A stretch of DNA of 14,727 nt from a bacterium. Its GTDB lineage: Bacteria > Arandabacterota > Arandabacteria > Arandabacterales > JALGWA01. Positions 1 through 14,621 of the stretch are shown in pieces. The position numbers and the translations under genes are program-made. The notes beneath the pieces are model-generated. The model worked only from the letters and a program-made list of their open reading frames with translations, made no database searches and had not been told where the DNA came from. Position 1 is the first letter of the stretch. Each line of letters opens with the position of its first letter. Location: contig JASFEA010000081.1 of the NCBI GenBank assembly GCA_050125095.1, forward strand, positions 1 through 14,727. Direction: 5' to 3'.

Positions 1-140
1 GCCGCGGCGCTCGCTGAGGCCTTCGAGGCCGTCCCGCGGTTCGGCTGCTCAGATTGTACTTGCACTTCCCACCTGTTCCGGGTACGCACAGAATTGAAAC
101 CGCAATTTACAGAAGAAGACAGATTGCCAGGAGGTAATGC

Positions 141-3011
141 ATGAAACCCGCCGCCCCTGTCGCAGCTGCCGCGATTACTATACTGCTCATGATCCCGCTG
201 ACGGCCCCGCCGCCCTCGCTTGCCCTCAAGGCCGAGCAATACGAAGCCTTCGACGAGGCCATACGCGGGGCCTTGCTCAACATGGGCATGACGCCCGCCG
301 ACATGCGAATAAGGCATGACTACGCCGAGCCCGACAAGTTCCGGCTCGCTATAGTCGACTCCCTCATGCACAACCCCGCGAGCCTGCTTGAGCAGGTCGA
401 CCGGCTCGCTTTGAAAGTCGAGCGCAGCGCGGCGGCGTGCGACCTCTCTTCCATGCTGTGGAGGGCCATGGATATCGAGCCCGCGACAGCGGTCGAGACG
501 GGTGAGGTCCCCAGGGTGAGAAATGTGGCGGGCCGCCTCAGGCATCTGCCTGGGGACACCCGGGTCCACCTGGAAGAATACTTGAGCAGTCTGGGGCGCA
601 TGTCCCGGCTTCTCGAGAGGGCGCGCGGGCCCTTGCGGGACCATGTCGACTTTCTCGAGACGGAGGCCTCGGCGCTGGTGACGCCCAAGGCCGAATACGA
701 AGACCTGGGGCCGTTCGAGCTCCATGACATCGAGGAGATGGAGTCGGCGCTTGCCGACTCAGTTCTCAGCCTGAGCGAGCTCGTCAACCTGCCCGAGCTC
801 GCAGGCATGTGCGCACTCGGCATGAAGTCCGCAGAAGATCTCGCAGCGGGGCTCGGGCCCGCAACGGTGGATATCGGCGACCATGCACGCTACGGCGATA
901 AGTCGGTGTCATTTAACGGTATGGAATGCAGCGTAACCGGGAAGGTAGCCTACTTCGGCATGACGGCGTACGGTCCGATCGTAGTAGGTGGCCCCTCCGA
1001 CAACACTTACACGGGCTGCTTCGCCCTCATCGCGGACCTGGGCGGCAACGACAGGTACACGCTGCACAGCCACCCCGACGTCAACTTCCGGCTCATAATC
1101 GACTACCATGGCGCGGATATTTACGAGTCACTGGACCAGACCGGCGTCGCCGGCATCAGGTTCGGCACGTCCGTTCTGATTGACCTCGAGGGCGATGACA
1201 CTTACAGAGCCGCCGACATGTCACTGGGCTCGGCAACTTATGGCGGCGCCCTGTTATACGACGTGAGGGGCGACGACATCTACGAGGCGGGAGCATTCTC
1301 CCAGGGCGCGGGTTTCCTGGGCGTCGGCGCCGTCGTGGACGGCGAAGGCAACGACAACTACACCGCCGGCATGCAGTCCCAGGGTTTCGGCTACGTGATG
1401 GGCTCGGGGCTCATACTCGATAAGACCGGCAACGACACCTACTACACCAGGATGTCGCAGAAAGACATATTGCGCTATGAGGACCACTACCTCACCCTTT
1501 CCCAGGGCTGCGCCTTCGGGGCCAGGCCCGACTACTCAGGCGGCATCGGGCTTCTCATCGACCTCAGGGGGAACGACCTCTACTACAGCGACATATTCGG
1601 CCAGGGCGTCGGCTACTGGTTCTGCGTGGGCGGCCTCATCGACAGGCAAGGGCATGATTATTACTGTTCATACCAGTACGCCCAGGGTGCCGGCGTTCAC
1701 CTGGCATTCGGGCTCCTCGTCGACGAACAGGGAAACGACTTCTACCAGAGCAAGGGCGTATCCCAGGGCTGCGGGCACGACCTCTCGCTCGGGCTCCTGG
1801 CGGATTTCTCCGGCAACGACTGCTTCACAGTCACCGACCTCAGCCAGGGCGCCGGCAATGCCAACGGCACCGGCATCATCTTCGACGCGGACGGCGTGGA
1901 CTCATACTCCTCCAAGAACAGGACCAATGTCAGCGGCTACGGCAATTTCCGCCGGGAGTTCGGCAGCATCGGCCTGCAACTCGACCTCGTGGGCCGGGAC
2001 TACTACTCGGCCCGGGGGCGGAACGACGCCCTGTGGGAAAGCGGCCAGTACGGCCTCGGGATGGACATACCCGGCGAGGCCGCCAGGGCAGATGGCGATA
2101 TCCTCATCGACGAGTCAGGCCTCATCGAACGGGATTACACCCCCCCGGAGCTCTTCATCCTGGCCTCCAGGGGGGAGCCGCGCTTCAGACAGTGGCACGA
2201 ATACGGCTTCGAAGCCATGGTTGAAGACACGGCCTCGACAATCGAATATCTCCGCACCGTGCTTGACACCAAAGTGGCAAGGGAGCGGCACACCATAAAG
2301 GATATACTGCGAGCGATCGGCAGCCCTTCGGTTGGCATGCTGTCGGCATCGGTGCTCGAAGACAACGACCTCGCCAAATCCGAGGCGAGCTGGATACTCG
2401 GTCTCATAGGCGACGCCGGGGCCTTCGACGCGCTCATACATCTCTCGCGCGCGCCCGGCTGGAAGCAGAGGTCGAGCGCGCTCAACGCTCTCGCCAAACT
2501 CAGGGACCTCTCGGCCGCGCAGAGGGACGCCCTGGAAGCGCGCGCAAAGCAAGTCCTGGATGACCCGGATGAGGTCTTCTATGTCAAGAAGGACGCGGCT
2601 TACGCTGCCGGGAGGCAGGAATTGACAGGCGCACTCCCCCGGCTCATGGAGGCGCTGGAGAGCGACCATTACTCGGTGCGCTACGCATCGGCCGAGGCCA
2701 TGCGCGGCCTCTCCCTGGAACACGGGGACGAAGTCTACCGCGGTCTGCGCGGGAGAATAGGCGGCTTTTCGAGCCTGGCCACGGTGGGCGCGCTATACGC
2801 CGCGGGCGCCCTCACCGACAAGCAGAAGCTGGCCATAATAGACGAGGTGCTGGACGGCGGGTATTCAGGTGATGCTCATGTGGCGGTGGCGGCCGCCAGG
2901 CTCCTCGCCACTGTCGGTGAGGGCCGAAACCGCGAGAGGCGCGAGACGAGACTCCTTGCCGCAGTCCCGGAAGAGTCCTGGCAGGTCCGGGCTATGCTCG
3001 AGGGCGAGTAG
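141..3011 (+). CDS. Secreted multi-domain protein: Sec signal peptide, acidic helical N-domain, ~13 tandem ~26-aa Gly-rich repeats (beta-solenoid-like), and C-terminal HEAT/PBS-lyase-type repeats. Function unknown.
   Basis: Longest ORF in the window, with AGGAGG 5 nt upstream of the ATG at 141. The N-terminus MKPAAPVAAAAITILLMIPLTAPPPSLALKA is a Sec-type signal peptide. Residues ~285-640 carry periodic motifs SDNTY, GGNDRY, HGADIY, EGDDTY, RGDDIY, EGNDNY, TGNDTY, RGNDLY, QGHDYY, QGNDFY, SGNDCF, DGVDSY and GRDYY, each preceded by an SQGxGxxxGxGLLxD-type segment. Residues ~740-940 show paired-helix repeats such as ALIHLSRAPGWKQRSSALNALAKL and LMEALESDHYSVRYASAEAMRGL, typical of HEAT/PBS-lyase repeats. 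No catalytic motif recognised. Confidence 0.8.
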   Translation: MKPAAPVAAAAITILLMIPLTAPPPSLALKAEQYEAFDEAIRGALLNMGMTPADMRIRHDYAEPDKFRLAIVDSLMHNPASLLEQVDRLALKVERSAAACDLSSMLWRAMDIEPATAVETGEVPRVRNVAGRLRHLPGDTRVHLEEYLSSLGRMSRLLERARGPLRDHVDFLETEASALVTPKAEYEDLGPFELHDIEEMESALADSVLSLSELVNLPELAGMCALGMKSAEDLAAGLGPATVDIGDHARYGDKSVSFNGMECSVTGKVAYFGMTAYGPIVVGGPSDNTYTGCFALIADLGGNDRYTLHSHPDVNFRLIIDYHGADIYESLDQTGVAGIRFGTSVLIDLEGDDTYRAADMSLGSATYGGALLYDVRGDDIYEAGAFSQGAGFLGVGAVVDGEGNDNYTAGMQSQGFGYVMGSGLILDKTGNDTYYTRMSQKDILRYEDHYLTLSQGCAFGARPDYSGGIGLLIDLRGNDLYYSDIFGQGVGYWFCVGGLIDRQGHDYYCSYQYAQGAGVHLAFGLLVDEQGNDFYQSKGVSQGCGHDLSLGLLADFSGNDCFTVTDLSQGAGNANGTGIIFDADGVDSYSSKNRTNVSGYGNFRREFGSIGLQLDLVGRDYYSARGRNDALWESGQYGLGMDIPGEAARADGDILIDESGLIERDYTPPELFILASRGEPRFRQWHEYGFEAMVEDTASTIEYLRTVLDTKVARERHTIKDILRAIGSPSVGMLSASVLEDNDLAKSEASWILGLIGDAGAFDALIHLSRAPGWKQRSSALNALAKLRDLSAAQRDALEARAKQVLDDPDEVFYVKKDAAYAAGRQELTGALPRLMEALESDHYSVRYASAEAMRGLSLEHGDEVYRGLRGRIGGFSSLATVGALYAAGALTDKQKLAIIDEVLDGGYSGDAHVAVAAARLLATVGEGRNRERRETRLLAAVPEESWQVRAMLEGE
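940..2120 (+). repeat. Protein-level tandem repeat array inside the 141..3011 CDS: ~13 units of ~26 aa (~78 nt), consensus ...SQG-x-G-x3-G-x-G-L-L-x-D-x2-G-[ND]-D-x-Y.
   Basis: Counted directly in the translation. Spacing between successive G[ND]DxY motifs is 26-27 residues, with one unit carrying an insertion. The units are divergent at nucleotide level, so they are ancient rather than recently duplicated. Confidence 0.6.
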
Positions 3012-3041
3012 CGGGAACTTAACGGATTTCCGCAGAAGGTC

Positions 3042-3584
3042 CTAGCCCCGCGCACGCAGCGCCTCGCCCAGGGCCTCATGATAGACGTCCAGGTCGTCAG
3101 CCCCGAAGAGCACGAAAATGACCTTATCCAGGCTGGTCGCATCGCCAAAGTGATCGAGAACCGCGTCCACGGCGACGCGGGATGCCTTCTCTATGGGGTA
3201 CCCGTAAACGCCCGTGCTGATCGACGGAAAGGCGATGGTCTTGAAGCCGCGATCCACAGCAAGCGCGAGGCTCTTGTCATAGGCGCTTCTCAGCAGCCCC
3301 TCTTCCCCCTTATCTCCCCCCCGCCAGACCGGTCCAACGGTGTGAATCACATAGGCCGCCGGGAGATTGCCGGCTGTCGTGATCACCGCCTCGCCCGTGG
3401 GGCATCGGCCGATCTTACGGCATTCCGCCATTATGGCCGGCCCGCCGGCCCGGTGTATGGCCCCGTCCACCCCGCCCCCGCCCCTGAGGCCCTCATTGGC
3501 GGCATTGACTACGGCATCCGCTATCACCCGGGTGATGTCGCCGTTGAAGAGCTCTATGAACCTGCCGTTGTATTCGAAGTCCAT
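3042..3584 (-). CDS. Macro-domain protein (Appr-1-p processing / O-acetyl-ADP-ribose deacetylase, YmdB-like)
   Basis: The motif NGDITRVIADAVVNAANEGLRGGGGVDGAIHRAGG is the macro-domain ADP-ribose-binding signature, followed by VITTAGNLPAAYVIHTVGPVW. GGAGG sits 8 nt upstream of the ATG at 3584. The ORF stays open to another ATG at 3614 that has no Shine-Dalgarno, so 3584 is the preferred start. Confidence 0.85.
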   Translation of the reverse strand: MDFEYNGRFIELFNGDITRVIADAVVNAANEGLRGGGGVDGAIHRAGGPAIMAECRKIGRCPTGEAVITTAGNLPAAYVIHTVGPVWRGGDKGEEGLLRSAYDKSLALAVDRGFKTIAFPSISTGVYGYPIEKASRVAVDAVLDHFGDATSLDKVIFVLFGADDLDVYHEALGEALRARG

Positions 3585-3634
3585 TTCATCTACCTCCCCC
3601 CCGCACAATATCATTTTCCCGAACCGTTTTCAGC

Positions 3635-3663
3635 TTGACATTGATCTAAACTAATACTAATAT
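3635..3663 (+). promoter_or_regulatory. Sigma70-type promoter, TTGACA(3635-3640)-17 nt-TAATAT(3658-3663), driving the rrf2-ferredoxin-cooS operon
   Basis: Perfect -35 hexamer, optimal 17-nt spacer, and a 5/6 -10 hexamer (TAATAT) ~20 nt upstream of the AGGAGA RBS and the ATG at 3683. The surrounding region is AT-rich in a GC-rich genome. Confidence 0.5.
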
Positions 3664-3676
3664 AGTATCAGTTTAG
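3646..3676 (+). promoter_or_regulatory. Imperfect palindrome CTAAACTAATACT-aatat-AGTATCAGTTTAG (13-5-13, 12/13 arms pair) overlapping the -10 box; candidate Rrf2 autoregulatory operator
   Basis: The inverted repeat is read directly from the sequence. Rrf2 regulators (IscR, NsrR) bind AT-rich palindromes overlapping their own promoters. Its position between the -35 box and the RBS fits a repressor site. Confidence 0.4.
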
Positions 3677-3682
3677 GAGACT

Positions 3683-4099
3683 ATGATGAAACTGCTGACC
3701 AAAGACACGGATTACGCGGTGAGGGCCATCGTCCATCTCGCCCGCAACCCCGACGGCTACCAGTCCTCGCGCGAAATTGCAAAGGCCGAGGGCATACCTC
3801 TTCAGTTCCTGAGGGCCATACTCCAGAGGCTTACAAAAGAGGGCCTGATCGTCTCGCGCGAGGGAGTCAGGGGCGGCGTTAAACTCAAGGCCAGGCCCCG
3901 CGACGTGCGGGTGAGCGACATCATAAGGATTTTCCAGGGCGATATAGAGCTCTCCGAGTGCATGTTCAGGAAAAAACTCTGCTCCAACCGGTCCACCTGT
4001 GTTCTGAGAGCGAGAATAAAGTCAATCGAAGAGATGGTGAACAGGGAATTCGAGAAGGTGACGATTGCGAAATTGATAGACGACCTGGGAGGAAAATAA
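3683..4099 (+). CDS. Rrf2-family transcriptional regulator (IscR/NsrR-like, probable Fe-S cluster sensor)
   Basis: The N-terminal wHTH signature MKLLTKDTDYAVRAIVHLA and SSREIAKAEGIPLQFLRAILQRLTKEGLIVSREGVRGG match Rrf2. Three Cys at C93, C100 and C106 (C-x6-C-x5-C) sit where IscR and NsrR ligate their Fe-S cluster. RBS AGGAGA precedes the start, and the stop overlaps the next start (TAATG). Confidence 0.85.
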   Translation: MMKLLTKDTDYAVRAIVHLARNPDGYQSSREIAKAEGIPLQFLRAILQRLTKEGLIVSREGVRGGVKLKARPRDVRVSDIIRIFQGDIELSECMFRKKLCSNRSTCVLRARIKSIEEMVNREFEKVTIAKLIDDLGGK

Positions 4100-4938
4100 T
4101 GAAAAGAGACATGATACATATCGACGACGAGAAATGCGACGGGTGCGGGGCCTGCATACCCAATTGCCCGGAAGGCGCGATCCAGATTATCGACGGCAAG
4201 GCCCGGCTCGTCGGGGAGGCGCTTTGTGACGGGCTCGGCGCATGCGTCGGATTCTGCCCGCGGGGGGCAATGACCGTGGAGACGCGCGAGGCCGAGGCCT
4301 ATGACGAGCGCAAGGTGATGGCCAACATAGTGAAGCAGGGCATAAACGTGGTCGCGGCGCATCTCAGGCACCTTGACGACCACGGCCTGGTTTCATACCT
4401 GAATGAGGGTCTCGAGTATCTCAAGCAACACGGCATCGAGATTCCGGACTACAAGCGGCCTCCGAGGGGAGCGGGGGTCTCCCCCTGCAGTTGCGAGGGG
4501 TGGAAACCGCCCGAGCGGGAGGGCGCCTCAGCGACGTCCCGTACAGGCTCGCTCGCGTCCGAACTGAGGCAATGGCCGGTGCAGCTCAAGTTGCTCCCGA
4601 CCAGCGCACCCTATTTCCGGAACGCTGATCTTCTCATCGCCGCCGATTGCGTGCCGTTCGCGCATGGCGGCTTCCACGGCGACCTTCTTAAGGACAAGGC
4701 CGTAATCATGTTCTGCCCCAAGCTCGACCAGGGCATCGAGGATTACATAGAGAAGCTCGCCCGCATATTCGCGGAAAACGACATCAGGTCCATAACGATC
4801 GCGCATATGGAGGTGCCGTGCTGCTTCGGCACCAATCGCGTCATCGAGCAGGCGCTCAAGATGTCGGGTAAGAACATCCCGGTTGAGACGAAGGTCATTT
4901 CTATTCAGGGAAAGGTCCTTGAGACCCGGTCCTGTTAA
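4099..4938 (+). CDS. Iron-sulfur protein: N-terminal 2x[4Fe-4S] ferredoxin domain plus a ~170-aa Cys-rich C-terminal domain of unassigned family; likely electron-transfer partner of the downstream CooS-like enzyme
   Basis: Start ATG at 4099 with GGAGG 6 nt upstream, overlapping the rrf2 stop. The 5' ORF extension back to 3958 overlaps rrf2 and is rejected. CDGCGACIPNCPEGAI and CDGLGACVGFCPRGAM are two CxxCxxCxxxCP ferredoxin motifs. The C-terminal domain carries conserved-looking Cys at SPCSCEGW, AADCVPF, MFCPKLD and VPCCFG. Confidence 0.75.
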   Translation: MKRDMIHIDDEKCDGCGACIPNCPEGAIQIIDGKARLVGEALCDGLGACVGFCPRGAMTVETREAEAYDERKVMANIVKQGINVVAAHLRHLDDHGLVSYLNEGLEYLKQHGIEIPDYKRPPRGAGVSPCSCEGWKPPEREGASATSRTGSLASELRQWPVQLKLLPTSAPYFRNADLLIAADCVPFAHGGFHGDLLKDKAVIMFCPKLDQGIEDYIEKLARIFAENDIRSITIAHMEVPCCFGTNRVIEQALKMSGKNIPVETKVISIQGKVLETRSC

Positions 4939-4977
4939 GAGGTCAATCCGCGAAGGCGCGGGAAAAGGAGGCTCACA

Positions 4978-6912
4978 ATGGAAGGCCAGAGGATATCTCA
5001 TCACGAGTCCGTAAAGAAGGCTTATGAGAGAATCAAGAATGACGGCATGAACAACATCTGGGACCGATACGAGGCGCAGGGGATGGGCGGCAACCCCGAC
5101 CAGAGATGCGCGTTCTGCCTGGCGGGCACGCGCTGCGACCTCTGCTCCAACGGTCCCTGCCGGGCCGACGCAGCCAAGGACAAGCGGGGCGTCTGCGGCA
5201 TAAAGGCGGACGGCATGGCCATGCGAATGATGCTGCTCCGAAATGTCATGGGGGCGTCTACGTACCAGTACCACTGCGACCAGACCGTGAAGACGCTGCG
5301 CCTGACGGCATTGGGCGCGACGGACTACCGGATCCGTGAGCCCGAAAAACTCAAGACATTCGCCAAACGCCTCGGCGTGGACACCTCCGGATCGACAGAG
5401 GATACGGCCATCCGGCTCTGCGACTTCGTGCAGAGCGACTTCAATCGCAGCTACCAGGAGCCCAGCAAGGTGGTGGAGGCGCTGGCCCCAGAGGAGCGCA
5501 AGATACTCTGGAATGAGCTCGGCATATTCCCCGGCGGCATACATGGCGAGATAATGTTCTCGACGAGCTCATGTCTCACCAATGTTGACGGCTACTACCT
5601 GAGCCTGGCCCTCAAGGCGATGCGGCTCGGCGTCGCCATGGCCTACCAGAGCCAGATCGTGAACGAATACCTGCAGGACGTCCTCTTCGGCATTCCGCGG
5701 CCGCACAAGGTCAGAGTGGACCTCGGCGTGCTCGACCCGGAATACGTCAACATCCTCCCCAACGGCCACGAGCCCTTCCTCGGCTTCGCGATGGTTGAGC
5801 TCGCGCGGCAAGAGGAGTGGCAGGAAAAGGCGAAGGCTGCCGGCGCCAGGGGGATGAGGATAATAGCCAATATCGAGACAGGCCAGGAGATGATACAGCG
5901 CTGGGAGATGGACGATGTCTTCTACGGCTTCACAGGCAACTGGATAATGCAGGAAGCGGTGCTGGCCAGCGGCTGCGTCGACCTCTTCGCAGCGGACATG
6001 AACTGCTCGATGCCCGTTGATCCAGAGTATGCCGAAAAGTACAAGTTCAAGCTCATACCGGTGAGCGAGCTGGTCGCCTTCGAGGGTGTTACGGATAGGA
6101 TAAACTACATTCCTGAAAAGGCGAAGGAACAGGCGGGGATGCTCCTCGACATGGCCATCGCGAATTTCAAGGAGCGCAAGGGCCGCGTCGAGCCCATTAC
6201 CGGGCTCAGAATGCATGAAGCCATCGCCGGCTTCTCCACCGAGAGCATACTCGAGGTCCTGGGCGGAACGCTTGATCCGCTTCTTGACGCGATCAAGGCC
6301 GGCTCGCTGCGCGGCGTGGTCGGCCTCGTCTCATGCACGTCCCTGAGAGACAACGGCCAGGATGTGCATACGGTCAGGCTGGCCGGGGAACTCATCAAGC
6401 GGGATATCCTGGTGCTGTCGCTGGGCTGCGGAAATGCCGCGCTGCAAGTCGCGGGGCTCTGCAGCCCGGAGGCGAAGGAACAGGCGGGGCCCGGGCTCAA
6501 GGCCGTATGTGAGGCCCTGGGGGCCCCTCCCGTGCTGAGCTACGGCACATGCACCGACACCGGGCGGCTGGCCGACCTGCTTGCGGCCATATCCGGTGCC
6601 CTGGGCGGCGTCCCGATCAAAGACCTGCCGGTGGCCGCGGCGGCGCCCGAGTACATGGAGCAGAAGGCGACCATCGACGCGATCTTCGCCCTGGCACTGG
6701 GCCTTTACACCTATGTCAACCCAGTGCCCACGGTAACCGGCGCGCCCGACCTGGTCGGCCTCCTCACCGAAGGCTGCAAGGAGGTGACGGGCGGCGTACT
6801 CGATGTCGAGCAGGACGCGGTGAAGGCCGCCGACAACATCCTTGCGCATATCGAGAGCAACCGCGCCAAACTCGGGCTGGACGGCGCGAAGGCGGCCCAG
6901 AGCGCGGATTAA
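4978..6912 (+). CDS. cooS: Anaerobic Ni-CO dehydrogenase catalytic subunit family (CooS / hybrid-cluster-protein superfamily), divergent member
   Basis: AAGGAGG sits 6 nt upstream of the ATG. Strings characteristic of CooS by eye: NIWDRYEA, GVCGI, NGHEP, AGFSTE, GLKAV, LGCGNAA and SYGTCTD. N-terminal Cys pattern is C44-x2-C47-x5-C53-x2-C56-x4-C61-x11-C73, consistent with a CxxC D-cluster type plus B-cluster ligands. C-cluster ligand positions are present (H264, C343, C453, C484, C525), except that the canonical Cys after the His reads I299-E300. Confidence 0.8.
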   Translation: MEGQRISHHESVKKAYERIKNDGMNNIWDRYEAQGMGGNPDQRCAFCLAGTRCDLCSNGPCRADAAKDKRGVCGIKADGMAMRMMLLRNVMGASTYQYHCDQTVKTLRLTALGATDYRIREPEKLKTFAKRLGVDTSGSTEDTAIRLCDFVQSDFNRSYQEPSKVVEALAPEERKILWNELGIFPGGIHGEIMFSTSSCLTNVDGYYLSLALKAMRLGVAMAYQSQIVNEYLQDVLFGIPRPHKVRVDLGVLDPEYVNILPNGHEPFLGFAMVELARQEEWQEKAKAAGARGMRIIANIETGQEMIQRWEMDDVFYGFTGNWIMQEAVLASGCVDLFAADMNCSMPVDPEYAEKYKFKLIPVSELVAFEGVTDRINYIPEKAKEQAGMLLDMAIANFKERKGRVEPITGLRMHEAIAGFSTESILEVLGGTLDPLLDAIKAGSLRGVVGLVSCTSLRDNGQDVHTVRLAGELIKRDILVLSLGCGNAALQVAGLCSPEAKEQAGPGLKAVCEALGAPPVLSYGTCTDTGRLADLLAAISGALGGVPIKDLPVAAAAPEYMEQKATIDAIFALALGLYTYVNPVPTVTGAPDLVGLLTEGCKEVTGGVLDVEQDAVKAADNILAHIESNRAKLGLDGAKAAQSAD

Positions 6913-6942
6913 AGACGCCTGACCCTTTGAGCCGATCTGAGC

Positions 6943-6983
6943 GGGGCGGTCCCCCGGGGGCCGCCCCCATACATTTGGTATTG
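6943..6983 (+). terminator. Probable intrinsic terminator after cooS
   Basis: GC hairpin GGGGCGG-t-CCCCC/GGGGG-CCGCCCC at 6943-6967, 30 nt after the stop, followed by CATACATTTGGTATTG. The T-tract is imperfect. Confidence 0.45.
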
Positions 6984-7030
6984 TCTCGGCGCACTTATTG
7001 TGTTACAAATGCCCCTAGCGGAGGTTGTTT

Positions 7031-7333
7031 ATGATCCTGGATGAACTTAAGGGCGAGATAGTCCTCATCAAGCTCAAGAGCCATGAAGAGCTTGAGACCT
7101 TCGGCGTGCCTTCCTCCAGTATTTACGCCAAGGTGATAGAAATCGACGAGCGCGTGGGCGTCTGGGTGGAGAATCCCAAGTGGTCACCAAAGAAGACCGC
7201 CAAGGAAGACGCGGAGCATATGACCCAGATCCTGATCCGGTGGGAATACGTCGTGGGTTTAATGACATTCCCGGACAGAGAGGGATTCAAGGAGGAAGCG
7301 GAAATAAAGCCCATGGGTTTCGTTACCAAGTAA
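7031..7333 (+). CDS. Hypothetical small cytoplasmic protein (100 aa), no recognised domain
   Basis: GGAGG at 7020-7024 sits 6 nt before the ATG at 7031, so the TTG at 7025 from the ORF track is unlikely. No signal peptide. Local GC (~52%) is below the window average. Sequence MILDELKGEIVLIKLKSHEELETFGVPSSSIYAKVIEIDERVGVWVENPKW... Confidence 0.5.
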   Translation: MILDELKGEIVLIKLKSHEELETFGVPSSSIYAKVIEIDERVGVWVENPKWSPKKTAKEDAEHMTQILIRWEYVVGLMTFPDREGFKEEAEIKPMGFVTK

Positions 7334-7437
7334 TCCTATCCGCGTAACCCTCCCGGCGAAACTCTCTCTTTAAGATCCCTGTCGCGGCGAGGTTCCGGGG
7401 CGTTTGCCTCTTTCCTGCAGCCTTTACATGTCTGTCA

Positions 7438-9177
7438 CTACCTGGCTATGACCACCTTGGCCGTCAGCGCCTCAGCGCCCGTATCAAGGCGCAGGAAGTA
7501 GATGCCGGAGCTCAGGCTGCCGGCCAGGGAACCCGTGGCATTCCAGCCGAGCTCATGGTACCCCTCTTCCCTGCGGCCGTTGACCAGGTCGCGGATATGC
7601 CTGCCGGCCACGTTGTATACCCCGATCCTCACATCGGCGGCCGCCGGAAGCCCGAAAACGATGCTGGTGCTCGACGTCAGGACGCTGCCGCCGGCGACTG
7701 TAAGAACGACCCTGTCAGGAATACCCGCTAGGTCCCCGCCTTCCACGCCCGAGGTCGAACCCCAGAGCGTGAAGTCGGAGTCGCTGGCGTCGGACGCCTC
7801 GTTGGGTACGCCATCGAACGCCACGACCTTTATTCTCGCGGTCTTCGAGTCCATGTCGGGCACCGTCCACATGAAAGACCCGTCATTGACCTCGCCCTGT
7901 GCCAGCGTGTCGGAATAGGTCACTCCTCCGTCGGTCGATAGCACTATGGTTATGCCCGTTATGCGCGCGTTATCGCTCGCCGACCAGGTGATTTCTTGAT
8001 CCGTGTTGTACTCCAGGATCTCGCCGCCATTGGGCGAAGTAAGCTCGACCTCAGGCGGGATGGGGTCCCGCTCTACCACGGGAACCACCGCGAAATCGGG
8101 ATCGCCCGCAAAACGCATACACTCGTTGAGGCCGCATGACGGAACGTCCGCGTTGGCCATCAGGAACGCGTCGCGTACGCTGTATCCCTGGTCCATGTAA
8201 TTGAAGAGGGCGGCCTGCCACATAATGGACTCGGTCCAGCAATTGGCGCACCACGTCTCCGCCATATGGCAGTAGCCAACGGTGGTAGTCGCCTCCCAGG
8301 AGCCCTTGCGGAATGCGTCGGAGAACGACCCGCTGAGGGTGTCGCACATGCCCTCACAGCTTCCCAGAAACGTAAAAGGCATCTTGGCCCGGTTGGCGAT
8401 CCACAGTTCGACTTTGAAAGAGCCGATATCCAGACCGCTTGAACCGTCGCAGCCGTACATGAAGCTGGTCGACCCGCCGTGGTTGAGCTCGTAGAACATG
8501 GCAGTGTGGTCCGACTTGACGTGTCCCCTGATCTGCTCGAGCGTCGGCCACTTGACTCCCTCGGTGGTATAGCCCATGTTCTCAAACCAGGTCTCGGCGT
8601 TCTGGTACCAGCTCGTCCAGGCGCCGTAGTATGGACACTCCCAGGGTCCGGTGAAAGAGAAGCCCTCGGTCGGCGGCGGCACGCCGTCCCCGAGCAGGGC
8701 CCCGGTTGCCGCGTTCACCACCTTTACGACCAGGCGGCCGTCCACGATGCTGCGCACCACCCAGCACGGGTCCGTGGGCGCGGGCTCCAGCGGGAATACG
8801 GCCGACTCGGGGGAGATATAATACAGCCTCGAGAACTGAATCTCGCCGCCCACAGTCGCCTCGGCATCTTCCCGTGATATCAGGCCGGCGGGAAGCGTCT
8901 CCGGGAGGCCGTCCCGCCAGTTGTATCGCCTGTCGAGCAGCTCTCCGGTCTCCCTGTCGAACTGGTAGACGATATTGTCCAGCTCCACGGCTGCCTCGCC
9001 GATCATCCGCTGATGGTAGTATACGATCTTGTCGCCGAACACGCCCTCCCGGAAGGCGCGGTCACCCGACTCGTACTTGCTGAGAAGACCCATAGCCGCG
9101 GACGCGCTGTCCAGCGATACGAGGATCGCAAGGGCGACGAGCGCGGTTACTGCCATATACCTCTTACAAGACTCCAT
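7438..9177 (-). CDS. Secreted Cys-rich putative cysteine peptidase (clan-CD-like His-x41-Cys dyad; tentatively legumain/gingipain/clostripain-type) with a conserved pre-CTD beta-sandwich domain and a Por/T9SS type-A C-terminal sorting domain
   Basis: AGGAGGT sits 7 nt upstream of the ATG at 9177 (MESCKRYMAVTALVALAILVSLDSASAA is a signal peptide). The ORF stays open to 9207 without an RBS. NHGG followed 41 residues later by FTFLGSCEG has the His-Gly...hydrophobic-strand-Cys geometry of caspase-fold peptidases (legumain has H148/C189). The C-terminal ~90 aa (IVFGLP...VRIGVYNVAGRHIRDL...GYHELGWNA...SGIYFLRLDTG...TAKVVIAR) match the T9SS CTD pattern. Confidence 0.75.
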   Translation of the reverse strand: MESCKRYMAVTALVALAILVSLDSASAAMGLLSKYESGDRAFREGVFGDKIVYYHQRMIGEAAVELDNIVYQFDRETGELLDRRYNWRDGLPETLPAGLISREDAEATVGGEIQFSRLYYISPESAVFPLEPAPTDPCWVVRSIVDGRLVVKVVNAATGALLGDGVPPPTEGFSFTGPWECPYYGAWTSWYQNAETWFENMGYTTEGVKWPTLEQIRGHVKSDHTAMFYELNHGGSTSFMYGCDGSSGLDIGSFKVELWIANRAKMPFTFLGSCEGMCDTLSGSFSDAFRKGSWEATTTVGYCHMAETWCANCWTESIMWQAALFNYMDQGYSVRDAFLMANADVPSCGLNECMRFAGDPDFAVVPVVERDPIPPEVELTSPNGGEILEYNTDQEITWSASDNARITGITIVLSTDGGVTYSDTLAQGEVNDGSFMWTVPDMDSKTARIKVVAFDGVPNEASDASDSDFTLWGSTSGVEGGDLAGIPDRVVLTVAGGSVLTSSTSIVFGLPAAADVRIGVYNVAGRHIRDLVNGRREEGYHELGWNATGSLAGSLSSGIYFLRLDTGAEALTAKVVIAR

Positions 9178-9225
9178 GTGCCGACCTCCTAATCCCTCAG
9201 CCTGCAAGCCCAGACAGCCGCATCA

Positions 9226-9253
9226 ACTATCCTCAAAAAGGACAGTGCGTCAA
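9226..9253 (-). promoter_or_regulatory. Candidate sigma70 promoter for the downstream protease gene (minus strand TTGACG-16 nt-GATAGT)
   Basis: On the minus strand, TTGACG (revcomp of 9248-9253) is followed after a 16-nt spacer by GATAGT (revcomp of 9226-9231), ~50 nt upstream of the RBS and ATG at 9177. Only 4/6 match in the -10 box. Confidence 0.3.
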
Positions 9254-9317
9254 GACGCCGTCATGCCCTCTGCCTACAGTGTGCCACAGCGGGCGAGTTA
9301 AGCAAGCGCCGCGTCGG

Positions 9318-9416
9318 TATAAATCGAGACAAATTCGAACCAGGCTTGGTGGAGGATGGGCGCCCCATGCCTTGCTCCTCGTATTCTGTGTGGTCTTCCC
9401 CGGCGACCCATCCTCC
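9318..9416 (-). terminator. Large stem-loop immediately 3' of the upstream protease gene, followed by a U-rich tract; candidate terminator or attenuator
   Basis: On the minus strand the 14-bp stem GGAGGAUGGG-u-CGCC...GGCG-CCCAUCCUCC (arms 9351-9364 and 9402-9416, 10 perfect plus 4 bp with a one-nucleotide bulge) encloses a 37-nt loop and begins 10 nt after the stop at 9427. It is followed by a small ACCA-agcc-UGGU hairpin and UUCGAAUUUGUCUCGAUUUAUA. Confidence 0.35.
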
Positions 9417-9426
9417 AAATGCACTT

Positions 9427-11910
9427 CTACCAGGCAATAACAATCTTGGCCGTTGCTTCACCTCCATCGCTATTGAGCCTTAAGAAATAGATACCAGGGC
9501 CAAGCCTGCCTCCCGCCTCAGTTCTCAAATCCCAGGTTATGTGATGATATCCCGCCTGCCTCTGCCCGCTCATGACGGCTGCAACGCGGCGGCCCGCCAC
9601 GTCGTAGCAGTCTATACTCGCGCGGGAAGGTGACGGCAAACCGAATTCGATCTTCGCAGGCGCGCCGGCGAGCGCGCCGCCCTCCACGCTTATCGAAACC
9701 GCGTCCGGAACGCGCGGGGCGTCGGGGTCGTCGACTCCGGACTGGTAACCCCAGAGCCTGAAATTCGCGTCGCTCTCGTCCTCGCCCTCATTCGAGGCGG
9801 CGTCGCGCGCGACGATCCTAATGCGCGCGACACCGCAGTCGATATCGGGGGCGTACCACGAATAGACCCCGTCGTCTGCTTCGCCCGAGGCGATCGTGTC
9901 GGGGAAGGTCACGCCACCGTCGGTGGAGAGCAGTATGCATACGGACGTAACGCCTATGTTGTCGGAGGCCGTCCACTCTATGTCATAGGTCGAGCCGAAG
10001 TGGAAGACTTCGCCGCCGTTCGGGCTGGCAACTGTCACGGCGGGCGGCTCTAAGTCTATTACGGCCGATTCGCAGGACCTGACGGCGACATCGTCGATGG
10101 CCGCTTCCACGATTGATCCGGGAGAGGAGTCCTGGGCCACGAACCTGAACTTCATCTGGCCGGTGAGCTCGACGTAGTCCTCGAGATAGAACTCCTTCTT
10201 CGTCCAGGCCCTTCCGCTGTATGAAAGCGTCTCGAGATTCTGCCAGGTCGCCCCGTCATCGCTCGACACGTCCACCACGAAGTCGTCGTCATTGGGGCCG
10301 GATCCCGTGTCGCTGGCGTACCACCTGTAGTAGGTCAGAACCGCCGAGTCGACATCGGAAAGGTCGACGGCCGGGCTCACGAGCGTTGTCCGGCCCCCGT
10401 CCACGTCATAGGCGCCCTGCGAATCGCCGGGATTGGACTGCTGCGTGAAGAAGCAGGTCGTTCCCGTCCCCGGCGTGTGGTCGTCCCCGGGCTGTACTTC
10501 CTCCGGTCCCCAGTAAGTGGCGTTGGGGTCGCCGCGCTCCCACATCCCCGTAACGGCCCCGTCGCCGGGCGCCCCGGAGGTCCACCCCAGGTCGGACTCG
10601 AAGTCATCTTCGAATACAGTTACGACTTCGCCTCCCTGCAGCACGAGTGCTCTGGTGGAACTCCCCTGGTCGGATGTTATCTCAATCTGGAAAACGAGCG
10701 CGCCGCAGGCCTGCGCCGAAGCGTCAACGGCAAAAGAAAAATGGGGACTGTATGATTCGAGCACCGCTCCCTTGTCTATATCGGGGTAGGCCGCCACGCT
10801 ATCGGTCACCGTGACGGAGCCTAGCGTGCTCCGGAGCGTGGCGCTTACATTCGTGGCGGTCTCCGCGCCGATATTGAGAAGCCTGACCGCCAGTATGACG
10901 GGCTCACCGGGCTCGATGTCGCCGTCTCCGTCGCCGGCGCTGTCGTCTATCGTATGGGAGTCATGGAAGAAGTGAACCGTCTGGCCGGGCGTGTAGTTGA
11001 GGGCGTCCGTGGCATAGCCGATATAGCTCGCGCCGTACTTGATGTACATATAGCCGCCGTCGCCCCAGTCGGGCCCCCACGAGTTCTTCATGATCCAGGC
11101 GCCGTCACCGCCGCACATGGTGTCGTCCCAGCCCACGAGCAGCACGCCATGGTTGATCTCGGTGCAGTTCTCCTCATAGCAGCCCCCGGTGTAGGAGCTG
11201 AATCCGCCGCATACCGCGATGGCGCAGGCCACCGGCCCTTCAAGCAACGCCGTCTTTATGGCCAGGACGGTGTCGTCGACATAGTAGTAGGAGTCGAGAT
11301 ACGCCGCCACGTCGCATGAAGAGACCGCACATGCCTCGGTGTCGTTCTCGTGATACGGCATGCACGACTCCCTGACGCCTCCCTGAGTGATGAACAGGTC
11401 ATATGCCGTTTCCATCCAGCCTCCGCTGCAGTCGTCGCCATTGGGGTTGCATACAAGTATGGCCTGCTCTGAGAGGTCCTCTTCCAGACCGCTGTAGATA
11501 AGGATCCGGGACTCGAGAGCCGCGGCCGCGCAAAAAGCCCAGCAGCTCCCGCAGTTGCCCTGGTTCTTGACTGGAGTCACTCCGCCCTGCGTCCGCCAGT
11601 CGAATGAAGACGGGAAGCTCATTCCTTCAGGAGCGGTTATGAGGCGGCCGTCGAGCGCGGCTCTCCGCCTGCGCTCCTGGAGGTCGGGCGGCAGCCTGAG
11701 GCCGAGGAGGCGCTGGAACTCCTCGTCGGTGAGCCGCGAAACCGAGGTCCGGCCCGCCGTCCACGAATACCCTTCCTCCTCAATATTCCGGTTTATGCGG
11801 TCGATCTTGGCCTGCTCGGCCTCCGGGGACAGCTCCGCCCGGAGGCAGGTCCCAGGCCAGACCGCGGCCAGTAGATACACGAGTACTGCCACGATAGCGG
11901 TCGATTTCAA
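9427..11910 (-). CDS. Secreted papain-family (C1A) cysteine peptidase with CARDB-like domain, MAM-like domain, conserved pre-CTD beta-sandwich domain and Por/T9SS type-A C-terminal sorting domain
   Basis: Papain catalytic signatures are present: Q in KNQGNCGSCWAF (Cys148), INHGVLLVGWDD (His280), NSWGPDWGDGGYMYIKYG (Asn/Trp). FEDDFESDLGW...GMWERG...DDHTPGTGTTCFF...RFVAQD...IDDVAV resembles a MAM/jelly-roll domain. The C-terminal IEFGLP...IDCYDVAGRRVA...GYHHITWDLR...PGIYFLRLNSDGGEATAKIVIAW is a T9SS CTD. The ORF is open to a TTG at 11988 with no RBS. A TTG at 11910, preceded by AAAGGGGCGG, gives a canonical signal peptide MKSTAIVAVLVYLLAAVWPGTCLRA, so the start is uncertain between 11910 and 11988. 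Confidence 0.8.
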   Translation of the reverse strand: MKSTAIVAVLVYLLAAVWPGTCLRAELSPEAEQAKIDRINRNIEEEGYSWTAGRTSVSRLTDEEFQRLLGLRLPPDLQERRRRAALDGRLITAPEGMSFPSSFDWRTQGGVTPVKNQGNCGSCWAFCAAAALESRILIYSGLEEDLSEQAILVCNPNGDDCSGGWMETAYDLFITQGGVRESCMPYHENDTEACAVSSCDVAAYLDSYYYVDDTVLAIKTALLEGPVACAIAVCGGFSSYTGGCYEENCTEINHGVLLVGWDDTMCGGDGAWIMKNSWGPDWGDGGYMYIKYGASYIGYATDALNYTPGQTVHFFHDSHTIDDSAGDGDGDIEPGEPVILAVRLLNIGAETATNVSATLRSTLGSVTVTDSVAAYPDIDKGAVLESYSPHFSFAVDASAQACGALVFQIEITSDQGSSTRALVLQGGEVVTVFEDDFESDLGWTSGAPGDGAVTGMWERGDPNATYWGPEEVQPGDDHTPGTGTTCFFTQQSNPGDSQGAYDVDGGRTTLVSPAVDLSDVDSAVLTYYRWYASDTGSGPNDDDFVVDVSSDDGATWQNLETLSYSGRAWTKKEFYLEDYVELTGQMKFRFVAQDSSPGSIVEAAIDDVAVRSCESAVIDLEPPAVTVASPNGGEVFHFGSTYDIEWTASDNIGVTSVCILLSTDGGVTFPDTIASGEADDGVYSWYAPDIDCGVARIRIVARDAASNEGEDESDANFRLWGYQSGVDDPDAPRVPDAVSISVEGGALAGAPAKIEFGLPSPSRASIDCYDVAGRRVAAVMSGQRQAGYHHITWDLRTEAGGRLGPGIYFLRLNSDGGEATAKIVIAW

Positions 11911-12001
11911 TAAACCGCCCCTTTCCAGGCCCGGCAACGGGGACTCCCGCTCACGGAAAGCCCGATAATATATATCTTTACGAATCAATTATACCACAAT
12001 A

Positions 12002-12034
12002 AGGGGCGCTCTCTCAAGCGACTTGTGCGCCCCT
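12002..12034. other. Nested GC hairpin AGGGGCGC-tctct-CAAG-cga-CTTG-t-GCGCCCCT in the divergent intergenic region, within or upstream of the C1A protease 5' leader
   Basis: Perfect 8-bp outer stem and 4-bp inner stem read directly from the sequence. On the minus strand it is followed by UUAUUGUGGUAUAAUU, which is terminator- or attenuator-like. Function unknown. Confidence 0.3.
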
Positions 12035-12318
12035 CTACTCCCGACCATCCCAAGTCGACCCGCTGAGGTAAATTATTGAATAACAAGCCATTAAGTATAT
12101 TAATATCGTTCCATACAGGGCTGCTGGGCGCCCTTCTATACCCATTGCAGCCCCCCACCACCCCGATATACCATTCATTAAGACTGTGAAGGCCCTGAGG
12201 GCCCCTGAAGCGGGCATTTGAGGCGAGCCCCGTCCCCCAATCCCGCGCGGGTCTTGACCCGGTGTCCTGCATGTGCTAGATATGATTTGCGGCTCTAACC
12301 ACATTGAGGAGGCTTGGA

Positions 12319-13455
12319 ATGGCAAGGTACCTGGCGATATCGGGCATATTAATCCTGGCAGCAGCCTTTATTCAGGGGTGCGGCGGCGATGACGGCGGGG
12401 TCGGCGTTACCATACCGGCCGTAACCGCGACCGTACCGGCGGACGGGGCAACCGGGGTAGCCATGAATACCTCAATATCCGTCACTTTCTCGCGCGAGAT
12501 GGAAGCCTCCACGCTTGATTCGATTTACGTGAACGGCCGGGCAGCATATCGGGTAGTCTACAACAACGCACAGAAAACGGCGACGGCCTACCTCGACAGC
12601 ATGCTGGGCGCCCAGACCGTATGCCAGGTGAAGGTATCGTCTTATTGCATGGACAAGTCGGGCAACAACCTGAGCGGCGACCATGAATTCAGCTTCACGA
12701 CGGGTGATTTCGGCTGCGACGAGCTGGAGGACCCGTTCGCTGACAATATGTCCATCGCGACGGCGGCCGAGGTGGATTTCAACACCAGATACAAGCTCCT
12801 GCCGAGCTGCGGAGGCCAGGGCGCCATGCATTACTTCAAGCTCGTCCTCTCGCAGGCCACCATGATCACCGCCAAATACAGGATTATAGACGCCGATACC
12901 ACCCAGGTTAGCTGGAGGCTCTATTTCAAGCGGGCCGACGAGGAAGACTACACGAGCCAGGGCTCGAGTCCCGTCGTTGCGGACCACCATGAGTACAGCA
13001 TGCGCTATTCATTCCTTCCCGGTACCTACTACATCAAGACCGGCAAGGAAGAAGACACCGGCCATACGGCGGTCTATGAGATTGAATTCGAGGACTCGGA
13101 AGCCTGCGCCGACGACGCTTATGAAGACAACGATTTCTTTGACGAGGCCACGCCGGTCACGCCCGGCACCCTCGAGAATCTCCGGTCATGTTATACAGAC
13201 GACGACTACTACTCCATAGACCTTACGACGGGGCAGACCATCACTGTGACTCTGGACGCCCCGGGAACCTCTGGCACGCTGCGAAGGGTCTGGATATACA
13301 ATCCCAGCAATATGGAGATGGGGCGTTATAACGGTTACGGCAACCCGGTTGTCCTGGAGAGAACCGCCTATATGGACGGGACCCACTACGTGTGTTCTCG
13401 CTGGTGGATAGATGACGTGGACTATAACCTGACAATCGAGGTGACGGGACCCTAG
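12319..13455 (+). CDS. Lipoprotein with N-terminal SbsA-type Ig-like (Big_5-like) domain and two PPC-like (pre-peptidase C-terminal-type) beta-sandwich domains
   Basis: GAGGAGG sits 6 nt before the ATG at 12319, so the TTG at 12304 is rejected. MARYLAISGILILAAAFIQGCGG is a signal peptide plus lipobox-like Cys. VTATVPADGATGVAMNTSISVTFSREMEASTL matches the Big_5/SbsA Ig-like motif. Two segments match the PPC pattern D-x-[YF]-E-x-N-D...A-x-[IV]...D-x-D-[YW]-[YF]: DPFADNMSIATAAEV...AMHYFKL and DAYEDNDFFDEATPV...DDDYYSIDLTTGQTITV. Confidence 0.75.
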   Translation: MARYLAISGILILAAAFIQGCGGDDGGVGVTIPAVTATVPADGATGVAMNTSISVTFSREMEASTLDSIYVNGRAAYRVVYNNAQKTATAYLDSMLGAQTVCQVKVSSYCMDKSGNNLSGDHEFSFTTGDFGCDELEDPFADNMSIATAAEVDFNTRYKLLPSCGGQGAMHYFKLVLSQATMITAKYRIIDADTTQVSWRLYFKRADEEDYTSQGSSPVVADHHEYSMRYSFLPGTYYIKTGKEEDTGHTAVYEIEFEDSEACADDAYEDNDFFDEATPVTPGTLENLRSCYTDDDYYSIDLTTGQTITVTLDAPGTSGTLRRVWIYNPSNMEMGRYNGYGNPVVLERTAYMDGTHYVCSRWWIDDVDYNLTIEVTGP

Positions 13456-13501
13456 GACCGGCGCATCAGGAGACATTAAGCCGGGATCTGCCCCCTGGTG
13501 C

Positions 13502-13559
13502 ATGTGCATCCTGAGACCTGACCCCTGAGGATGTGCATTTCAAGACCTGACCCCTAGCG
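13502..13559. repeat. Two immediately adjacent 29-bp direct repeats (ATGTGCAT-N4-AGACCTGACCCCT-N4) between convergent genes, preceded by an additional GTGCATGTGCAT
   Basis: Unit 13502-13530 is ATGTGCATCCTGAGACCTGACCCCTGAGG and unit 13531-13559 is ATGTGCATTTCAAGACCTGACCCCTAGCG, identical at 21 of 25 core positions. The second copy overlaps the hflK stop codon, and a T5 run follows. Confidence 0.4.
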
Positions 13560-14600
13560 TTTTTGGGTGGGCAATATGAGGCGGAGATTGGCGGTTCCGT
13601 CCTCGCCGGAACGGTCCACCATGTAAACCTTCAGGTTCGGCAGGATTTTTTCCATCTTCTCGATGTAGATGCGGGAGGCGGTGACCTCCCTGTTCCTCGA
13701 GTACTCCTCAAGCAGCGACAGGAAGCGCTCGGCCTCGCCGCGGGCCATCTCGACCCTCTCGTCCCTGTAGGCTTCGGCTTCGCGCACCATGCTAATGGCC
13801 TTGCCGCGTGTGGCGGGGATGATGGTGTTCTTGTAGCCCTCGGCTTCGTTTACGAGCCTGCTCCTGTCCTCCCTCGCGCTGGCCACGTCACGGAAGGCGT
13901 AGGCGACTTCCACGGGCGGGCTTATGTCCTGGAAGTAGGCGCCGATCACGGTTACGCCGATGCCGTATTCGTCGGCGACTTTCTGCACGCCGGCCTTTAT
14001 TAGCGCCTGGGCCTGGAGTTTCTCGGTCGTGAGAAGGGCATCTACGCCCATGCTTCCCACAACCGCCGCAACGACTTCCTCCGAGGCGACCTCCACGAGC
14101 CTCGTGGGATTATCGGATGTGAACAGATAGCTTTTCGGGTCGCTTATGGCGTACTGGATGATCACCTGGACGAGTATTACATTGGTGTCCCCGGTCAGCG
14201 TCTCGAGCCCGCCCACAGTTGACGATTCGCCCTCCTTGCCGAGGCCCACAAGCATCTTCTTGATCTCGGCCGTCTTGGGCCGGTATACGCGGTCCACCGG
14301 CCAGGGAACGCTGTAATGTATGCCCGGCGGCACGTTGTCGGCGATTACCTTGCCGAAACGCATCACCACGCCGAGCTCGTCCGTCTGGACGACGTATATT
14401 CCTGATAGCAGATATGCGAGCACCGCCACGACGGCTATCACCGACAGGAATCTCCTGTTAGCAAACGGAATCGACTTGAGCCCCGCCAGTATTATGTCGG
14501 CCGCCGACGGGTTATCGGGCGGAGAAGCCGGCTTATTCACGGGCGCGTCTTTGGAAATGTCCCCGGGCCTATCGGGCCCGGCATCAGGACCCTGGTTCAT
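13554..14600 (-). CDS. hflK: HflK (FtsH protease modulator, SPFH/band-7 family)
   Basis: AGGTGA RBS sits 4 nt before the ATG. The protein has an N-terminal Pro/Ala-rich tail, then one TM segment (FLSVIAVVAVLAYLLSGIYVV), then an SPFH domain. The C-terminal SRIYIEKMEKILPNLKVYMVD and EAEAYRDERVEMARGEAERF parallel E. coli HflK RERLYIETMEKVLGNTRKVLVN and EARAYKAQTILEAQGEVARF. Confidence 0.85.
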   Translation of the reverse strand: MNQGPDAGPDRPGDISKDAPVNKPASPPDNPSAADIILAGLKSIPFANRRFLSVIAVVAVLAYLLSGIYVVQTDELGVVMRFGKVIADNVPPGIHYSVPWPVDRVYRPKTAEIKKMLVGLGKEGESSTVGGLETLTGDTNVILVQVIIQYAISDPKSYLFTSDNPTRLVEVASEEVVAAVVGSMGVDALLTTEKLQAQALIKAGVQKVADEYGIGVTVIGAYFQDISPPVEVAYAFRDVASAREDRSRLVNEAEGYKNTIIPATRGKAISMVREAEAYRDERVEMARGEAERFLSLLEEYSRNREVTASRIYIEKMEKILPNLKVYMVDRSGEDGTANLRLILPTQKR

Positions 14601-14621
14601 CCTGTCACCTTCAAGTTCTTC

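Follow-up and report, generated by a model that had tools for sequence, protein, structure and literature searches.

What kind of protein is encoded by the long open reading frame (ORF) at the beginning of the 14,727-nucleotide window analyzed here (contig JASFEA010000081.1 of GenBank assembly GCA_050125095.1, positions 1 to 14,727 of the forward strand, from a bacterium of the Arandabacterota), and what might it do once it has left the cytoplasm? The gene is a single long ORF (141-3011, plus strand) of 956 codons plus a stop, with its ATG at 141-143 and a GGAGG Shine-Dalgarno sequence at 130-134, 7 nucleotides 5' of the ORF. It was judged to be real; one protein (P0001) was 99% identical to its product, and full-length homologues number hundreds. 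The initial annotation, made from the sequence alone, had described a secreted protein in which an apparently undescribed repeat solenoid is fused to HEAT repeats. It is well supported that the repeat region constitutes a sequence family without a match in the libraries searched, predicted to fold as a right-handed parallel beta-helix, and the structural statements given below are, taken together, very probably correct.

Repeat Array and Predicted Beta-Helix

The motif G-x-D-x-[YF] occurred 12 times between amino acids (aa) 302 and 618, with successive spacings of 22, 27, 26, 26, 27, 47, 27, 27, 27, 27, and 33 residues. Shuffled sequences of the same composition contained on average 0.7 and at most 5 such motifs (2,000 trials). 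When placed in register, the units followed the consensus x5-[SQ]-Q-G-x-G-x3-G-x-G-L-L-x-D-x-x-G-[ND]-D-x-Y and formed 12 clear repeats (aa 280-622, positions 978-2006, plus strand), followed by a degenerate capping rung reaching to about aa 642. The period was 26-27 residues in 8 of the 11 spacings, the exceptions arising from a short rung 2 and from insertions of 20 aa ahead of rung 7 (aa 435-454) and of 6 aa within rung 12. Of the earlier claim of about 13 units with a strict 26-27-residue period, the array itself was upheld by the shuffled controls, whereas the count was corrected to 12 plus a degenerate cap and the strictness of the period did not hold for 3 of the 11 spacings. A tandem repeat at the DNA level was looked for in the gene, and none was found. 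This indicated that the repeat units are ancient and diverged, and a recent DNA duplication was rejected as the origin of the array.

A model of the window protein was generated with AlphaFold2 (AF2) on the basis of a 50-sequence alignment. The whole-protein model had a mean predicted local distance difference test score (pLDDT) of 84.7 and a predicted template modeling score (pTM) of 0.84, with most of aa 260-560 above a pLDDT of 90. In this model aa 254-643 (positions 900-2069, plus strand) built a regular solenoid in which each rung of 26-27 residues comprises three short strands. The predicted structure is a right-handed parallel beta-helix, its 12 regular rungs being preceded by an N-terminal cap and followed by a capping rung at the C-terminal end. 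The structure prediction that the initial annotation had proposed as a check returned a regular beta-solenoid with high confidence, and neither an irregular fold nor a profile match to an existing repeat family was observed.

Pfam and NCBIfam scans of the window protein gave no match on aa 254-643, and the repeat domains of ten diverse family members gave no relevant match to Pfam at E ≤ 10. Comparison of PDB sequences with the single protein and with the full family profile recovered HEAT and alphaRep proteins only, leaving the repeat unmatched; a 411-position domain profile and a 27-position unit profile likewise found no relevant match for the repeat among PDB sequences. Literature searches found no description of the family. 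The view that the repeat is undescribed was therefore confirmed for sequence libraries, since RTX, PbH1, Beta_helix, and other Pfam and NCBIfam families as well as PDB sequences remained unmatched. It did not extend to a new kind of solenoid: the right-handed parallel beta-helix is a fold class already known, and it is the repeat family and the architecture that lie outside the libraries.

Ladder Residues and a Putative Calcium Turn

The 50 aligned sequences, which originate from several phyla and share about 30% overall identity, were placed in the rung register. Residues G0 and D+2 were invariant in all 12 rungs, as was Y+4 (at least 90% in three of them), whereas D-3 was invariant or nearly so in 10 rungs and G-7 in 8. 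In rungs 1-5, conservation was confined to these ladder residues. Judged from the alignment, the invariant positions would form a structural ladder, which would fit stacked ion-binding turns together with an aromatic stack.

The best structural match of the predicted helix, by a clear margin, was region IV of the ice-binding RTX adhesin of Marinomonas primoryensis (MpIBP/MpAFP RIV, Protein Data Bank entry: 3p4g). This domain is described as an atypical beta-roll, with twelve repeats of 19 residues (XGTGND-XUXU-GGXUXG-XUX), in which Ca2+ is bound by the XGTGND turn only and the ions all lie along one edge (PMC6891781). The reading of G-[ND]-D as a calcium-type turn occurring once per rung, already put forward in the initial annotation, was strengthened because the nearest structure binds Ca2+ on one side and once per turn. 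By analogy, the D-x-x-G-[ND]-D turns of the window protein may bind one Ca2+ per rung, which would make folding dependent on export.

The other near structures, Vag8, EtpA, HMW1, and TibA, were non-enzymatic beta-helices, as is MpIBP RIV, and a Foldseek search of the PDB with the full model was dominated by HEAT and armadillo matches and was uninformative for the beta-helix. This resemblance to non-enzymatic beta-helices favors an alternative explanation, in which the protein has a purely structural or adhesive role as a passive rod, i.e., a Ca2+-stiffened spacer or adhesin comparable to RTX adhesins, autotransporter passengers, or the ice-binding domain. It would then lack catalysis and a specific small site, and its conserved residues would serve folding or protein contacts only. 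The rungs of the AF2 model, which are regular and free of the long loops typical of enzymes, point in the same direction. The evidence that speaks against such a rod comes from the second half of the helix, from the sorting domains, and from the conservation of the family, and is given with each of these.

Invariant Stripe in Rungs 7-12

In rungs 7-12 (aa 455-622, positions 1503-2006, plus strand), the 50 sequences shared rung-specific invariants at register positions -15 to -10. These were R462, P463, and Y465 in rung 7, Y492 and W493 in rung 8, H520 in rung 9, C544, G545, H546, and D547 in rung 10, N575 in rung 11, and R604 and R605 in rung 12; N573 in rung 11 was conserved, not invariant. 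Alignment and register matrix also placed a conserved 20-aa insertion (...DILRYEDHY..., aa 435-454, positions 1443-1502, plus strand) between rungs 6 and 7, in which D442, R445, Y446, and H449 were invariant or nearly so. The loop that carries the stripe amounts to about 8 residues per rung beyond the 19-residue roll. In a beta-helix, equal register positions in successive rungs stack about 4.8 Å apart, and the stripe residues should therefore form one continuous stripe; H520 and D547, for example, share a register position in adjacent rungs.

This pattern suggests that the stripe of rungs 7-12 is a functional site, either for binding or for catalysis. The combination of Arg, Tyr, Trp, Asn, His, and Asp with one Cys would suit a groove that accommodates a polymer in extended form, probably an acidic one, and possibly acts on it catalytically; a metal site is the alternative. 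The residue types of the stripe, together with the weak genomic context described below, are indirect hints at a glycan-cleaving or glycan-modifying activity. A single invariant Cys beside invariant His and Asp is hard to explain through folding alone and in this respect argues against a passive rod.

The metal site deserves separate consideration. NosD is a periplasmic beta-helix needed for copper-centre assembly, and the window protein might by the same token be a periplasmic metal-handling or cofactor-maturation factor, with C544-G-H546-D547, H520, and H449 as a transition-metal site and the HEAT solenoid holding the client. The invariance of C544, H546, D547, H520, and H449 and the shared register position of H520 and D547 are in line with this, a lone invariant extracytoplasmic Cys is typical of metal ligands, and two family members (P0257 and P0225) carry an extra domain of NosD or Beta_helix type. 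However, the repeat domain has no sequence relationship to NosD, genes for metal enzymes, chaperones, or ABC transporters are not consistently adjacent, and the large number of Arg, Tyr, Trp, Asn, and Gln among the invariant residues is more suggestive of a polymer-binding groove than of a metal site. We regard a NosD-like function as improbable, and a polymer-binding groove remains the preferred interpretation of the stripe.

Export and the HEAT Module

Residues 1-29 (positions 141-227, plus strand; MKPAAPVAAAAITILLMIPLTAPPPSLA|LK, putative cleavage site) could be read directly from the sequence as a typical Sec leader, and a comparable hydrophobic N-terminal leader was present in nearly all 50 aligned homologues. 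The leader is followed by an acidic domain (aa 30-253, positions 228-899, plus strand; pI 4.73), which is helical in the AF2 model (helices 31-248), carries the conserved motif RIRxDYxxPDxFRLxxVDxLMxxP (family consensus), and gave no family match in the Pfam scan. The signal peptide and acidic helical N-terminal domain named in the initial annotation were thus both recovered. The Pfam scan of the window protein found neither Por_Secre_tail nor autotransporter domains, and no sorting domain of a type I, type V, or type IX secretion system (T1SS, T5SS, T9SS), which weighs against a secreted adhesive rod. The window protein is predicted to be exported via Sec and is most likely periplasmic or envelope-associated.

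Behind an acidic, low-confidence linker recognizable by its composition (aa 644-665, positions 2070-2135, plus strand; aa 644-659 disordered with pLDDT <50), the C-terminal 290 residues (aa 666-956, positions 2136-3008, plus strand) form an alpha-solenoid of paired helices, which spans aa 668-953 in the model. It is a PBS-lyase-type HEAT module by sequence as well as by fold, as had been assigned before: HEAT_2 scored 32.5 bits against a Pfam cut-off of 27.7, and the family profile matched alphaRep at 7e-49. Since the homologues are named "HEAT repeat protein," NblB and CpcE give weak matches, and CpcE/F are among the structural matches, the protein might be taken for an ordinary cytoplasmic HEAT scaffold or a bilin-lyase/NblB-like protein. 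However, the NCBIfam scores were 22.2 bits for NblB (cut-off 300) and 19.5 bits for CpcE (cut-off 330), and identity as a bilin lyase was rejected. Moreover, HEAT repeats are limited to the last 290 of 956 residues, signal peptides are found family-wide and also on stand-alone HEAT genes, and no cyanobacterium was among the matched genomes listed with a taxon label. A cytoplasmic HEAT or bilin-lyase function is hardly credible.

The relationship between the two solenoids was apparent from the homologues. About one third of the best profile matches were 570-670 aa long and stopped just past the beta-helix. In six loci (L019, L021, L023, L035, L068, and L087), a gene encoding about 300 aa came immediately after the beta-helix gene or overlapped it at the stop and start codons; the product of that in L087 matched HEAT_2 (5e-40), HEAT_PBS (5e-26), and the C-terminus of the window protein (E = 1e-18). 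The stand-alone HEAT proteins of the family carry their own hydrophobic N-terminal leaders, indicating that both split halves are exported. In P0239 and P0242 the HEAT repeats are N-terminal to the 27-residue-repeat helix, and in P0225 and P0257 an extra N-terminal Beta_helix or NosD-type domain stands ahead of this helix. That the modules occur fused, split, and permuted argues strongly that beta-helix and HEAT repeats act together outside the cytoplasm, and their partnership is regarded as obligatory. N-terminal fusions to RibD/deaminase and PDZ domains (P0167 and P0241) were set aside, as they look like merged adjacent gene calls. The initial annotation had considered an exported HEAT fusion an unusual architecture; in a family of thousands of clusters, whose stand-alone HEAT genes also encode signal peptides, it turned out to be the normal state. 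The HEAT solenoid may dock a partner or clamp a substrate.

Distribution and Conservation of the Family

A word-index search found 716 homologues of the complete protein, mostly of about 950 aa and named only "HEAT repeat protein" or "hypothetical," and an exhaustive search with the repeat-domain profile yielded 4,215 representatives of 50%-identity clusters at E ≤ 1e-3, 2,277 of them at E ≤ 1e-30. In species-representative genomes 218 loci matched. Taxon labels were taken from 80 of these 218 loci, all from metagenome-assembled genomes (MAGs), and comprised Eisenbacteria, Zixibacteria, WOR-3, Ignavibacteria/Chlorobiota, Bacteroidota, Delongbacteria, Cloacimonadota, and Gemmatimonadota; Armatimonadota and Didemnitutus were each the label of one record. 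The MAGs closest to the organism of the window include Eisenbacteria. The family is widespread in the FCB group of phyla and strongly conserved. Its annotation solely as "HEAT repeat protein" or "hypothetical" follows from the fact that its largest and best-conserved domain has no Pfam or NCBIfam model.

The repeat domain was 42-68% identical to that of the window protein (ten aligned sequences), and the family is about 50% identical between phyla such as Eisenbacteria, Ignavibacteria, Zixibacteria, WOR-3, Gemmatimonadota, and Cloacimonadota. Such conservation is high for an exported repeat protein and would be unusual if the protein were simply an adhesin. The sequences of adhesins usually change quickly and their repeat numbers differ, whereas here the length (about 950 aa), the number of rungs, and many surface-loop residues are fixed across phyla. 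We consider the passive rod unlikely, and the following refers to a helix with a working surface.

Proposed Function

The overall best explanation, to which we give about even chances, is that the protein is an exported, Ca2+-stiffened beta-helix that binds or modifies an envelope polymer and uses its HEAT repeats as a docking module. The 12-13 rungs, each with one D-x-x-G-[ND]-D-x-Y turn, would stack into a one-sided Ca2+ ladder as in the roll of the MpIBP adhesin, with the invariant Tyr of the turns forming an aromatic stack. The ladder would be the structural spine, and the domain would fold and stiffen only after export. The working surface would be placed in the extra loop of rungs 7-12 together with the DILRYEDHY insertion, where the stripe could bind, and possibly chemically modify, an extended polymer of the envelope, with an acidic glycan as the likeliest candidate. 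Together with the beta-helix, the HEAT solenoid would serve as a module for protein docking or clamping, fused to the beta-helix in the window protein and provided by a separate exported gene in other lineages. A binding or assembly role, as suggested in the initial annotation, may apply to the window protein; the polymer-binding or polymer-modifying mechanism as such is tentative.

Several observations weigh against this explanation. The putative calcium turn departs from the canonical GGxGxD and XGTGND motifs, Asp-x-x replacing the first glycines, and alignment of the repeat-domain profile with the 3p4g sequence by hhalign gave no homology (probability 0.1%). The stripe residues should cluster in space, a proposition derived from the repeat register and not from distances. 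The structural likeness to lyases and epimerases is one that the fold in general brings with it, and their catalytic motifs were not identified in the window protein. Finally, no partner gene was conserved across phyla in the 88 loci whose neighbourhoods were analyzed. The conserved neighbours that the initial annotation had suggested looking for were thus not encountered beyond single phyla, and the genomic context gives no functional anchor.

A more specific possibility is an envelope factor particular to the FCB group, in which the Ca2+-laddered helix would hold a catalytic or metal centre made up of Cys544-His546-Asp547, His520, and His449, with Arg, Tyr, and Trp around it, and an exported HEAT clamp would act on a polymer or client. 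This is doubtful; if true, it would represent a new class of enzyme or maturation factor built on a new 27-residue repeat. The mechanism is not yet surprising, but the family merits a domain definition of its own. A model of the 27-residue repeat would improve the annotation of many genomes of uncultured lineages and would extend the range of the RTX-like calcium turn to one turn per 27-residue rung in a Sec-exported protein. The Cys-His-Asp/Arg/Trp stripe and the pairing with exported HEAT repeats offer concrete points from which to approach what is probably a core function of the envelope in poorly studied bacteria.

Gene Neighbourhood

In the clade of the window, the gene stands last in a string of genes on one strand, which encode Glyphos_transf, NTP_transferase, an M1 peptidase, an M28-PDZ peptidase, and, in the closest relatives, DUF123. 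The window begins within this string: positions 1-144 (plus strand) hold the 3' end of the DUF123 gene (Pfam DUF123, E = 8.7e-7), whose TGA (142-144) overlaps the ATG of the repeat gene in an ATGA at 141-144. The arrangement is repeated in a 99%-identical contig (L001), where the string from Glyphos_transf (CDP-glycerol glycerophosphotransferase type) to DUF123 occupies 3707-10004 and overlaps the family gene by 4 bp. Without DUF123, the string is syntenic throughout the clade (L006-L018, repeat domains about 63-86% identical), not beyond it.

Elsewhere the neighbours differ. In one lineage, which has a Zixibacteriota MAG among its members (L087, 6270-7004; L019 and L021), the beta-helix gene is preceded by a TatC gene whose end runs 4 bp into it; this adjacency may be coincidental, since the leaders lack an obvious twin-arginine motif. 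A peptidase-operon or Tat-linked function was rejected for the family as a whole, as such neighbours are limited to single clades or lineages. In 22 loci of Ignavibacteria type (e.g., L024, 8149-8808), the family member is immediately followed by a gene whose product, of about 225 aa, has a lipoprotein-like leader, a weak match to LppM (E = 1e-4), and a C-terminal hydrophobic segment, and this LppM-like gene may be a lineage-specific partner. A Wzx/MurJ-like flippase gene was found downstream in L025 and a TPR protein gene upstream in L051. Overall, the context gives weak hints of envelope-polymer biology.

On the 3' side, the clade of the window has a convergent macro-domain gene and an Rrf2/ferredoxin/CooS cluster. 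In the window, the macro-domain gene lies at 3045-3614 (minus strand; Pfam Macro, E = 4e-46), a position kept in eight loci of the clade. It is followed by an Rrf2-family regulator gene at 3683-4099, a gene for a 4Fe-4S ferredoxin-like protein ending at 4938, and CooS, the catalytic subunit of an anaerobic CO dehydrogenase, at 4978-6912 (all on the plus strand; TIGR01702, 726 bits against a cut-off of 478). The ORF start at 3958 would place the 5' end of the ferredoxin gene inside the Rrf2 gene and probably lies too far upstream; in the JGI call the gene begins near 4097. These three genes look like a small CO-oxidation cluster, which is kept in L001 and L006. Two large, probably secreted proteins with Big_7 and C-terminal FlgD_ig domains are encoded at 7441-9207 and 9430-11988 (both minus strand), the latter being a papain-family (C1) cysteine peptidase of 853 aa. 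They may be T9SS cargo, because FlgD_ig C-termini often accompany Por_Secre_tail in related loci (L004 and L023). A Big_5 Ig-like-domain protein (12304-13455, plus strand) and an HflK homologue (13554-14600, minus strand; TIGR01933, 216 bits) are apparently unrelated to the repeat gene.

Comparison With Known Systems

The C-terminus of the window protein is a bona fide member of the PBS-type HEAT proteins (HEAT_2/HEAT_PBS, alphaRep, CpcE/F, E. coli YibA), from which it differs by its export and by its fusion or pairing with a beta-helix. With the pectate-lyase-like helices, i.e., PL6 alginate/chondroitin lyases, the C5-epimerases AlgE4/AlgG, phage capsule depolymerases, and autotransporter or TPS passengers, the repeat domain shares the fold of three parallel strands per rung. 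However, the identity is 4-15%, the rungs of the window protein are far more regular, and the catalytic motifs were not found. The Beta_helix (PF13229), NosD (PF05048), and PbH1 profiles gave no match to the repeat domain, neither in the whole protein nor in ten diverse domains.

The resemblance to canonical RTX repeats (PF00353 HemolysinCabind, GGxGxDxUx) lies in the G-[ND]-D-x-[aromatic/hydrophobic] segment, which is similar to the second half of the RTX nonapeptide. Ca2+-dependent folding after export is a likely shared logic (PMC6891781). The window protein has one turn per 27 residues in a three-sided helix, whereas RTX proteins have two turns per 18 residues in a two-sheet roll with Ca2+ on both edges. 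It also combines an N-terminal Sec-type signal with a HEAT C-terminus in place of the uncleaved C-terminal T1SS signal of RTX proteins. PF00353 gave no match at E ≤ 1 with the whole protein or at E ≤ 10 with ten diverse repeat domains. Together with the period of 26-27 rather than 9 residues and the lack of a T1SS signal, this agrees with the initial annotation that the repeat is not a classical RTX.

The closest known system is MpIBP RIV. Both are acidic, Gly-rich, extracytoplasmic domains; the predicted helix is right-handed, regular, and uninterrupted over about 12 turns and can be superimposed on 3p4g, and in both each rung has one turn containing G-N-D and, after it, a short strand that includes a hydrophobic or aromatic residue. 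The window protein differs in its period of 26-27 instead of 19 residues, its three strands per rung, and its D-x-x-G-[ND]-D turn without G-T-G, and no detectable sequence homology connects the two: besides the hhalign result, the family and unit profiles miss 3p4g in the PDB. Moreover, it carries a Sec signal peptide and not a C-terminal T1SS signal, and its helix is present as one conserved copy in a protein of 950 aa and not as part of a megadalton adhesin. Ice binding was rejected as a function, the matching genomes including a hot-spring MAG as well as sludge and wastewater-type MAGs. The repeat would work like a one-sided RTX-type roll, outside the RTX and MpIBP sequence families. What is already known from these systems is the fold class, the principle of the calcium turn, and the HEAT repeats; what is new is the 27-residue repeat family, the single RTX-like turn per three-sided rung, export by Sec instead of T1SS, and the combination of an exported beta-helix with HEAT repeats across the FCB group.

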